A DNA stretch of 64,000 bases, taken from NCBI RefSeq assembly GCF_002854065.1, contig NZ_CP024147.1; one strand, given 5' to 3'. Numbering within the stretch: position 1 is the first letter of the stretch; each line of letters starts with the position of its first letter. Under the pieces are notes generated by a model that saw nothing but the letters and a program-made list of their open reading frames with translations, did not search any database and was not told the origin of the DNA. Origin of the DNA: Escherichia coli (GTDB taxonomy: Bacteria > Pseudomonadota > Gammaproteobacteria > Enterobacterales > Enterobacteriaceae). The position numbers and the translations under genes were made by a program. This document shows positions 6,147-7,222 of this stretch, piece by piece.

Positions 6147-6339
6147 TATTCTACTCTGGAAGTAGAGTATTAATTATTTTACTGGGAAGCCTTAACGCCA
6201 TTATATTTATTTAATTGATGACATTAGCATAATCATTCACTAAGTTAATTTATATAGTATCTGCCCAGACACTTATTTATAGTTATTAAAGGCGCGTCCG
6301 ATTGGTTCACCGGACGCACCTTAAGTACGTTTCCTTGTG

Positions 6340-6420
6340 TTATAAGAACAGAAGGATCAGCTGTAAAACAGCAATGATGATTTTGATGACCCGTTTAATC
6401 AGGTATCGGCAATCAGTCAT
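6340..6420 (-). CDS. shoB: Type I toxin small membrane peptide ShoB (26 aa)
   Basis: Minus-strand translation from ATG at 6418-6420: MTDCRYLIKRVIKIIIAVLQLILLFL*. Not in ORF track (below 60 aa). Matches ShoB as I recall it. Confidence 0.75.
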   Translation of the reverse strand: MTDCRYLIKRVIKIIIAVLQLILLFL

Positions 6421-6744
6421 TCGTTTTTCCTTAAACAAGGAATGCAGCCGTTCAGATTAGCCCTTACATCTCCCCAAAACTGAACGTGCGAGTTATTGGA
6501 ATCGAGTGCTGCACTCCACACCAGAGCTTTGACGACACCACTCGTTTCAATGGGGGAATTCAGTGGCATGGTGTAAAGCACAGCAAAATTGCCAATAACG
6601 AAACCGATTTTAATGTACTTATCAAAAAGCGGTCACGTTAATCTTTTCATCAATGTCGATTTCTTCGTAAAGGCTCGCGTTTTTTATGTCAGAGATTGCA
6701 AGTTGCTTGTACAGGTCAACGAAATTGATCCATAATCATTTTCG

Positions 6745-6818
6745 TTGGAATCGTGTGCTGCACAAAATTAAAGTTAAAAAGTAAAACCCCCGTTCCTTAC
6801 CAGTTCGGGGGTTTTACT
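6745..6818 (+). ncRNA. ohsC: Candidate OhsC antisense sRNA (antitoxin of shoB); boundaries approximate
   Basis: Putative promoter (-35 TTGTAC 6707-6712, 18-nt spacer, -10 CATAAT 6731-6736), a 19-nt segment (6745-6763) that directly repeats 6496-6514 in the shoB 5' region with one mismatch, and a rho-independent terminator hairpin (AAAACCCCCG...CGGGGGTTTT, 6784-6815). Boundaries inferred, not measured. Confidence 0.45.
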
Positions 6819-6841
6819 TTATAAAGAGAACGGTATTATTT

Positions 6842-7222
6842 TTAACTTTCAATAATTACCGTGGCACAAGCATAGTGGCGCTCATCGGCAAGCGTTACAT
6901 GCATATTTATAACGCCGAGCTTTTCCGCCAGTTTTAATGCCTCACCCCATAGCCGTAGCCGTGGTTTGCCGAGCTCATCATTGAATACTTCAAACTGATT
7001 AAACGCCAGACCATTGCGGATCCCGGTGCCAAACGCTTTTGCCGCCGCTTCTTTCACAGCAAAACGCTTCGCCAGAAAACGCACCGGCTGGTGGTGCGTT
7101 TTCCAGATAGCCCATTCGTTATCGCTTAATACGCGGCGTGCCAGGCGATCACCGGATCGGGCGATCACCGCTTCTATGCGAGCGATCTCCACAATATCCG
7201 TGCCTAAACCTAATATTGCCAT
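6842..7222 (-). CDS. acpS: Holo-[acyl-carrier-protein] synthase
   Basis: 126-aa [35 protein letters not shown]...; 4'-phosphopantetheinyl transferase family. Confidence 0.95.

Follow-up and report, generated by a model that had tools for sequence, protein, structure and literature searches.

The shoB-ohsC locus of Escherichia coli, in which the gene of the small hydrophobic toxin ShoB and that of the antitoxin small RNA (sRNA) OhsC are divergent, is an ordinary, textbook type I toxin-antitoxin system, and both the system and its variable region are already known. Its description in K-12 is reportedly owed to Kawano, in 2005, and Fozo, in 2008. In K-12, ShoB is toxic when overproduced and OhsC represses its synthesis; the shoB messenger RNA (mRNA) reportedly occurs in forms of ~320 nt and ~280 nt, and translation is confined to the processed form, which has a second 5′ end at +41/+42. 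Ribonuclease III (RNase III) cuts within the shoB/OhsC duplex region in MG1655 in vivo. The present work deals with the copy of this locus at positions 6340–6820 of a 64,000-nt stretch of E. coli DNA (contig NZ_CP024147.1 of assembly GCF_002854065.1, hereafter the window). An earlier reading of that DNA, here called the original prediction, had noticed a 19-nt direct repeat with one central difference between its two copies and had suggested that the resulting mismatch could weaken the pairing of antitoxin and toxin mRNA.

Among the described systems, the zorO-orzO and zorP-orzP pairs of E. coli O157:H7 likewise consist of divergent toxin and sRNA genes, and the 5′ end of the sRNA pairs, as here, over 18–19 nt with a long 5′ untranslated region (5′ UTR) of the mRNA for the toxin (Wen, Won and Fozo, 2014). 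In zorO-OrzO, 15 continuous base pairs (bp), or at least 17 discontinuous ones with one unpaired nucleotide, suffice for repression. The OhsC of strain EDL933 has been cloned, only as a negative control for zorO, which it does not repress. In dinQ-agrB and tisB-istR-1, which are 5′-processed type I systems of the standby or structural-switch kind, the toxin mRNA has a long, structured 5′ UTR, and in the primary transcript its 5′ end hides the antisense target; once ~40 nt have been removed by processing, the mRNA is active. The binding site of the antitoxin is far upstream of a Shine-Dalgarno (SD) sequence that is itself sequestered, and the duplex is cut by RNase III. A dinQ-like fold of four elements has been proposed for shoB itself, with “sequence 2” masked by “sequence 1” (Kristiansen et al., 2016). 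Among the similar antisense pairs of the Sib/Ibs family, short variable regions give cognate-only repression (Han et al., 2010).

The best explanation of the interval, which we hold with high confidence, is that it is the chromosomal shoB-ohsC locus of E. coli in an O157:H7/B2-type haplotype (here “type II”); this judgement covers as a whole the locus, the mechanism proposed below, the pairing determinant, the existence of three linked haplotypes and a mismatch that is old and fixed. The two copies of the repeat read TTGGAATCGAGTGCTGCAC (6496–6514) and TTGGAATCGTGTGCTGCAC (6745–6763), both on the + strand, and their sole difference is at repeat position 10 (A6505/T6754), just as had been noticed. 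In K-12 MG1655 both copies read TTGAGGGTGCATGCTGCAC, a perfect 19/19 match, so that the mismatch is indeed absent from the reference. The idea of a reference sequence with one weakening lesion does not survive the same alignment. The repeat of the window, TTGGAATCG(A/T)GTGCTGCAC, differs from that of K-12 at positions 4–8, 10 and 11, that is, at 7 of the 19 positions in each copy, and six of the seven substitutions are the same in both copies; at position 10, the C of K-12 is replaced by A in the shoB copy and by T in the ohsC copy. The pairing block is thus GAGGGTGCA in K-12 and GGAATCG(A/T)G in the window. So many mirrored substitutions argue that the window carries an alternative, co-varied pairing allele and not the K-12 allele with a point mutation.

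The distribution of the remaining differences is in line with this. All seven differences between the OhsC of the window and that of K-12 fall within the 8-nt pairing block, while the shoB mRNA (~315 nt) shows 14. Seven of these belong to the block and three to the 5′ arm, at mRNA nt 8–10, where the window has GCA and K-12 has AAG; ten of the 14 are therefore located within the pairing block or the segment predicted to pair with it inside the mRNA, a co-variation of three elements. The K-12 locus (b4687/b4608) otherwise has the same genes, neighbours and ShoB peptide, the same OhsC outside the pairing block, identical −10 boxes, and complementarity at the same position and of the same length. 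It departs from the window in its pairing (19/19, against 18/19 with a central U·U in the window), in the −35 box of ohsC (TTGTAA, against TTGTAC) and in the intergenic spacer, which is ~20% diverged.

Since shoB is transcribed leftward and ohsC rightward, a direct repeat in the DNA gives complementarity between the two RNAs, as the original prediction had argued, and the repeat corresponds to the 19-nt determinant, already published, through which OhsC pairs by its 5′ end with the 5′ UTR of shoB (see Wen, Won and Fozo, 2014, for the context). The shoB copy lies in the 5′ UTR, 76–94 nt upstream of the AUG, within the OhsC target site (6495–6514, − strand; mRNA nt ~86–105), whose variable block is 6499–6506; the ohsC copy forms nt 2–20 of OhsC, within the pairing region of nt 1–20 (6744–6763, + strand). 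The mismatch thus places OhsC U11 (T6754) opposite U ~95 of the shoB mRNA (A6505), and G1 of OhsC can add a G·U pair with the base at 6495. Altogether, the two RNAs can form 18/19 Watson-Crick pairs, interrupted by the central U·U, plus the G·U at OhsC +1, and a search with full-length OhsC against the shoB mRNA returned 6495–6514 as the best intermolecular duplex. No third copy of the repeat with up to 3 mismatches was found within the 64 kb, and in 100 shuffles with preserved dinucleotides it never matched twice (0/100).

The allele is a common one. In 5,426 complete E. coli genomes, surveyed with short diagnostic megablast queries whose conserved flanks are below the 28-nt seed length, the shoB target is of type I (that of K-12) in 3,722 (68.6%) and of type II in about 1,694 (31.2%); the type II target query gave 1,697 matches, three of which correspond to an A4G variant of type I. 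The antitoxin gene is of type I in 3,087 genomes (56.9%), of type II in 1,693 (31.2%) and of a third type in 506 (9.3%). This type III ohsC, TTGAGGGTGCGTGCTGCAC, forms a G·U pair with the type I target. Type II strains include EDL933, sequence type 131 (ST131) and avian pathogenic E. coli (APEC), so that the EDL933 OhsC that was cloned is a type II one. A 2024 survey reports TTGTAC as a minority variant of the ohsC −35 box, with a share of 33.1%, which agrees with the type II frequency found here.

The elements of each haplotype travel together. In loci sampled from every identity band (L002–L017), the type II target occurs only with the type II OhsC, and always with the A/T difference. An independent set made up of 78 true metagenome contigs comprises 32 of the K-12 type, 34 of type II and about 11 similar to type III; in none of the 78 do elements of type II occur together with those of type I or III, and all 34/34 of type II carry the mismatch. 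No type II locus examined lacks the central mismatch, neither among the ~1,694 of the 5,426 genomes nor among the 34 contigs, and no exact match to a “repaired” type II allele, with either the shoB copy changed to T or the ohsC copy to A, was found in the 5,426 genomes. The only candidate for a repair, in strain CUWW06, still has the T, together with an additional A-to-G change that gives a G·U pair. E. coli carries three linked haplotypes, namely the K-12 type with perfect pairing, an outgroup-like one with a single G·U, and type II, and in each common haplotype at least 18 of the 19 pairs are kept.

A single hybrid was found among the complete genomes, in strain Z1323CEC0015 (locus L102, NZ_CP148423.1), where the target is of type I and the OhsC of type II. 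Its locus (1359–1890) has the shoB gene, target and mRNA 5′ arm of the K-12 type, followed by a type II patch of ~100 bp with the ohsC promoter and seed; the crossover is located within the conserved segment AGATTGCAAGTTGCTTGTA at the ohsC −35 box. The shoB gene is intact and the predicted OhsC-shoB duplex amounts to ~−21 kcal/mol. The reverse hybrid (type II target with type I OhsC) was not seen in the top rows of composite queries, the only usable ones, since the join of the two sites created a 28-nt seed and made these queries unfit for counting recombinants.

Minor variation exists within the haplotypes. In ~129 genomes with a type I target, ohsC matched none of the seed-limited type I, II and III queries, and at least one further OhsC variant exists among them, in locus L095, with G at position 11 and CACTAAATT downstream. 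One metagenome contig (OLIF01000052.1, L039) combines the target TTGAGGATGCGTGCTGCAC with a type III OhsC, so that position 11 forms G-C instead of G·U and position 7 now forms G·U; this is a further small compensatory step inside the ancestral-type haplotype. One change in the 62-nt target window was recorded in 105 genomes (type II target query), and rarer alleles show a terminal C·U (L015, target C19A), an A·C (L016, target A4G, 3 genomes) or a G·U (L103, OhsC A6G). To judge from these sequences, the system copes with single imperfections of several kinds.

Predicted energies separate the alleles clearly, taking as net energy the sum of the duplex energy and the costs of opening OhsC nt 1–20 and the target in the mRNA that starts at +42. 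The K-12 cognate pair is predicted at −41.4 kcal/mol for the duplex (net −28.3), and the type III OhsC with the type I target reaches −41.0 (net −28.3). The cognate pair of the window is predicted at −34.2 (net −23.8), and either repair of the mismatch would bring it to −38.4 to −38.6 (net −29 to −30). Pairs formed across alleles reach only −19.2 to −21.5 (net −5.7 to −11.6), and are predicted to fail; the cognate duplex of the window is better than these by >12 kcal/mol. The U·U would cost about 4–6 kcal/mol, roughly 15–20% (4.4 in the duplex, ~5–6 with opening energies). In these models, then, the mismatch most likely lowers the stability of the duplex only moderately and leaves the cognate specificity in place. 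Of the weaker pairing that had been foreseen, the modest predicted cost stands, and the notion of a new lesion gives way to a trait of the entire allele, one that is old, fixed and probably tolerated.

The third co-varying element is the 5′ arm of the shoB mRNA. Both the minimum free energy (MFE) and the centroid fold of the inferred full-length mRNA pair nt 1–31 (6569–6599, − strand) with nt 77–108 (6492–6523), burying the OhsC site (nt 86–105), and the 5′ UTR folds more stably than its shuffles (z = −3.8). An RNAalifold consensus of 20 distinct haplotypes yields the same helix, which fits the masking proposed by Kristiansen et al. (2016). Within it, mRNA nt 7–11 are GAAGA in the K-12 type (nt 8–10 AAG), GGCGA in type III and in the representatives of both outgroup species (GCG), and GGCAA in type II (GCA, at 6590–6592). 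Across the three haplotypes the pair 8:101 is A-U, G·U or G-C and the pair 10:100 is G-C or A-U, and in type II three more pairs are possible (11:99, 12:98 and 13:97). This co-variation may be regarded as modest evidence, from few events, for a self-masking helix. The predicted cost of opening the target is 17–20 kcal/mol in the form that starts at +1 and ~7 in the form that starts at +42, from which the first 41 nt have been removed.

Downstream, the SD sequence AAGGAA (6427–6432), listed in the 2024 survey as the shoB ribosome binding site (RBS) and 100% conserved, forms a 6-bp hairpin with an anti-SD, UUCCUU (6437–6442), on the − strand (6427–6442). All predicted folds of the +1 form and of the +42 form contain this hairpin, and its six pairs are invariant in the 20 haplotypes; the probability that the SD is unpaired is 0.08–0.23 in both forms, free or blocked by OhsC, for both alleles. 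A dinQ-like switch, with the SD opened through pairing of the freed target to the anti-SD, could not be reproduced, the SD staying paired in all predicted states. An SD that is always paired in the models would be compatible with a standby-type mechanism, without discriminating between models.

The degree of divergence suggests that type II is either old or imported. Out of 71 differences between the window and K-12 over 2 kb, 54 fall in 6423–6922; there are 19 per 100 nt in 6623–6722 and 14 in 6723–6822, against 0–3 in the flanks (genes yfhL, acpS and pdxJ), so that the haplotype is ~10% diverged over ~480 bp and ~1% in the flanks. In a 482-nt locus, type II differs at 46–55 positions from every other haplotype, including those of the representatives of two other Escherichia species, which differ from K-12 by only 14–21. 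In these outgroups the target is of type I, the OhsC of type III and the arm GGCGA, and this is therefore probably the ancestral combination; type II is probably an old or imported haplotype, and the island of divergence suggests either an ancient balanced polymorphism or an imported segment. The spacer between the two promoters (6600–6743, non-transcribed) is the peak of haplotype divergence, and transcribed regions outside the pairing block are nearly invariant. An origin of the type II block from the mRNA 5′ arm by a quasipalindrome or template switch was considered as well, but GAUUCC is only an imperfect complement of GG-C-AAUU, and a simple one-step origin is unsupported.

In the mechanism that we propose, the first 20 nt of OhsC would pair with nt ~86–105 of the shoB 5′ UTR, ~75 nt upstream of the hairpin-sequestered SD. 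In the primary transcript of ~315 nt this site would be buried by the mRNA's own 5′ arm; processing of the 5′ end at +41/+42 would expose it, the processed form being the translatable one, and the binding of OhsC would then block translation by a standby-type or a structural-switch route and leave the duplex exposed to RNase III. Type II would have originated by replacement of the 8-nt block in both partners, with six of seven substitutions mirrored and the mRNA 5′ arm altered to match, and the one unmirrored position would have left the central U·U. The analysis itself shows what the locus is, which alleles exist, how frequent and how linked they are, how they co-vary and what energies are predicted; the positions of transcription start and processing, the translational mode of repression and the tolerance of the mismatch are those that we infer or that the literature provides.

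Several points weigh against this explanation. No experiment on the type II pair was found in the literature searched, and the transcription start site of shoB and the +41 processing site are transferred from work on K-12 and from the position of the promoter. The MFE models show no opening of the SD upon processing or OhsC binding, so that the mode of repression they would accompany is a deduction. The co-variation comes from three haplotypes, that is, from few independent evolutionary events, and strain Z1323CEC0015 is viable with a non-cognate OhsC and an intact shoB, which indicates that cognate pairing is not strictly essential for viability. Finally, in zorO-OrzO a central single mismatch, 9(1)8, attenuated the rescue (Wen, Won and Fozo, 2014), so that the mismatch may have a real functional cost.

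This last result bears also on a different reading of the mismatch, which takes up the functional suggestion of the original prediction and according to which it meaningfully weakens repression and the type II lineages (O157:H7, B2 and others) have a leakier or more easily triggered ShoB than those of the K-12 type. The type II duplex is predicted to be 4.4 kcal/mol less stable than a perfect one and 7 less than that of K-12, with net binding 4.5–6 weaker, and a duplex interrupted in the middle, with 9+9 bp, may be a poorer substrate for RNase III. However, the window pair, 10(1)9 when the terminal G·U is counted (18 pairs plus G·U), exceeds with its 18 bp and one G·U the 17-bp discontinuous threshold of OrzO, and a net energy of about −24 kcal/mol is still very favourable. 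Imperfection is moreover tolerated in nature, since 9% of the genomes carry the G·U variant and rarer ones have added mismatches (the L015 type in up to ~105 genomes, L016 and L103); we regard the reading as doubtful. A slightly better, still tentative, case can be made that the U·U is kept by selection because each U closes a pair in its own RNA (U11-A19 in OhsC; U95-A85 in the target hairpin of the processed shoB mRNA), in which case the repair of either side would destabilise a structure needed for the stability of the sRNA or for the geometry of recognition. OhsC nt 1–30 are predicted at −2.4 kcal/mol with U11 and −0.4 with A11, U11-A19 closing a 4-bp 5′ hairpin, and the shoB target segment at −11.2 with U95 and −6.9 with A95, U95-A85 closing a 5-bp hairpin; all three natural OhsC alleles keep a 5′ hairpin of 4–5 bp, which the Rfam model includes. 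The repaired allele is found in 0 of ~1,694 type II genomes, though other single-nucleotide changes occur in the same short windows; but neutrality also predicts that one specific point mutation will be absent among closely related genomes. Besides, these are short hairpins with small energies, net binding with the opening costs included is predicted to be stronger for the repaired variants (−29 to −30, as compared with −23.8), and experimental data on a role of the OhsC 5′ hairpin were not found in the literature searched.

That type II is a decaying or uncoupled toxin-antitoxin pair, silenced by the structure of the mRNA alone, is very unlikely. The SD is indeed predicted to be sequestered regardless of OhsC, and a strain is found in nature that is viable although its OhsC is non-cognate; yet the six mirrored substitutions out of seven and the co-varying 5′ arm argue for ongoing selection on pairing, ~1,700 genomes have conserved and intact copies of the ShoB reading frame, the RBS and the two promoters, and the transcribed parts beyond the block are nearly invariant while the spacer has diverged by ~20%. 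A sequencing or assembly error, or a mutation private to the strain, can practically be dismissed, since the same pair of 19-mers is present in ~1,690 independent complete genomes and 34 metagenome contigs and nothing speaks for it. The functional implication of the mismatch in the co-varied type II allele is plausible but probably small.

The features of the locus support its identification as shoB-ohsC, which the original prediction had made along with a 26-aa toxin reading frame on the minus strand. That frame is found at 6340–6420 (− strand; 26 aa and stop, MTDCRYLIKRVIKIIIAVLQLILLFL), nested within a listed 32-aa open reading frame that starts with TTG, and its hydrophobic peptide and its DNA are 100% identical to K-12 shoB (b4687). 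The matching locus of O157:H7 carries the RefSeq label type I TA (toxin-antitoxin) toxin ShoB (WP_000128776.1). NCBIfam gave 0 matches, as it has no hidden Markov model (HMM) for the 26-aa ShoB, and the identity was established by the direct comparison with K-12. OhsC (77 nt; 6744–6820, + strand), the counterpart of K-12 ohsC (b4608), matches Rfam RF02495 (ohsC_RNA) over its full length, 1–77, with 101.3 bits (gathering score 50, E = 5e-17); it folds into a small 5′ hairpin (nt 10–20, + strand) and a terminator hairpin (6778–6820, + strand). The gene order yfhH-yfhL-shoB-ohsC-acpS-pdxJ is that of K-12, with the divergent pair placed between yfhL and acpS. The surrounding 561-nt interval is 100% identical to O157:H7 genomes and is present in 5,425 of the 5,426 complete genomes.

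A consensus scan places the promoter of ohsC at 6707–6736 on the + strand (−35 TTGTAC, 6707–6712; −10 CATAAT, 6731–6736) and that of shoB at 6607–6636 on the − strand (−35 GTGACC, 6636–6631, and −10 TAAAAT, 6612–6607, with an 18-nt spacer), and the hexamers of both equal those published for the locus in the 2024 survey. From the −10 boxes, the OhsC +1 would be G6744, equal to the K-12 annotation, and shoB transcription would start near 6599; together with the intrinsic terminator hairpin of shoB seen in the fold (6289–6322, − strand), this start would give an mRNA of ~315 nt, which fits the published transcript of ~320 nt. An automated terminator scan of 6250–6860 returned none, though both terminators are obvious in the folds. 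Relative to K-12, the shoB terminator differs at 6293 and 6302, where a stem G·U becomes A-U and the loop changes, and the hairpin is kept. A second Rfam ohsC match, below threshold (34.9 bits), lies on the minus strand at 6778–6863, and the OhsC terminator hairpin is nearly palindromic, a property that the 2024 survey likewise remarked; located just downstream of the convergent acpS stop (6842), this terminator probably acts in both directions, for ohsC and acpS.

Disruptions of the locus were also recorded. In strain 1613 an IS1 insertion separates the two halves, strain EC96 keeps only the last ~85 nt of the interval, and one metagenome contig (L073) breaks into unrelated sequence inside the shoB 5′ UTR. 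A peptide-pattern scan found ShoB only in E. coli and in the representative of one other Escherichia species; three further matches (L019, from Methanobrevibacter, L042 and L058) were AT-rich false positives.

To a system already known, the present analysis adds the haplotype structure with its strict linkage, substitutions mirrored between the partners, a 5′ arm that co-varies with them, a U·U that is invariant, and one natural hybrid. No earlier description of these points was found in a literature search that did not extend to all key papers (Fozo et al., 2008; Fozo, 2012). Unlike for zor-orz, the 2024 survey held that the sufficiency of pairing at each individual locus “cannot yet be said”; the computational answer offered here is that the variation consists of a few co-varying haplotypes and is not erosion, and that the co-variation gives evolutionary support to the OhsC site and to the self-masking 5′ helix of shoB. 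In practical terms, the results of K-12 shoB/ohsC constructs should not be carried over to O157:H7 or B2 strains unless both partners are swapped, and the types I, II and III, L039, L015, L016, L103 and the recombinant Z1323CEC0015 constitute natural sets of mutants for the rules of pairing.

To judge from the sequences compared, the locus offers a neat natural example of co-evolution between two RNAs. A bolder and more speculative reading, to which we give rather less than even weight, is that two orthogonal OhsC-shoB specificity alleles are maintained, with co-evolved OhsC seed, target block and self-masking 5′ arm, the U·U being selected through the hairpins of the two RNAs themselves. It draws on a haplotype that is ~10% diverged, more than this locus differs between E. 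coli and other Escherichia species, and on the rarity of hybrids (1 in 5,426). If true, such alleles would provide a natural test bed for the evolution of a short seed without intermediates in which the toxin is unrepressed, and for the maintenance of haplotypes by epistasis on a scale of 250 bp.

Set beside the known systems, the type II allele of shoB-ohsC is closest in form to zor/orz, where a short variable block, V1, sets the specificity between sRNA and toxin and the tolerance of mismatches depends on the continuity of the helix; the block of shoB-ohsC plays the same formal role, with the difference that the zor/orz specificities are paralogues in one genome and those of shoB-ohsC are alleles of one locus across strains. 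Like the tisB, zorO and dinQ systems, shoB-ohsC places the antitoxin site well upstream of the SD, which all the folds keep in a hairpin. The toxins and RNAs of dinQ-agrB and tisB-istR-1 are not homologous to those of shoB-ohsC, and the mechanism of shoB is proposed by analogy only; of the dinQ-like fold, the present models support the helix between elements 1 and 2 and showed no opening of the SD. The Sib RNAs (Han et al., 2010) are cis-encoded, fully overlapping paralogues, whereas the OhsC RNAs are trans-encoded alleles.

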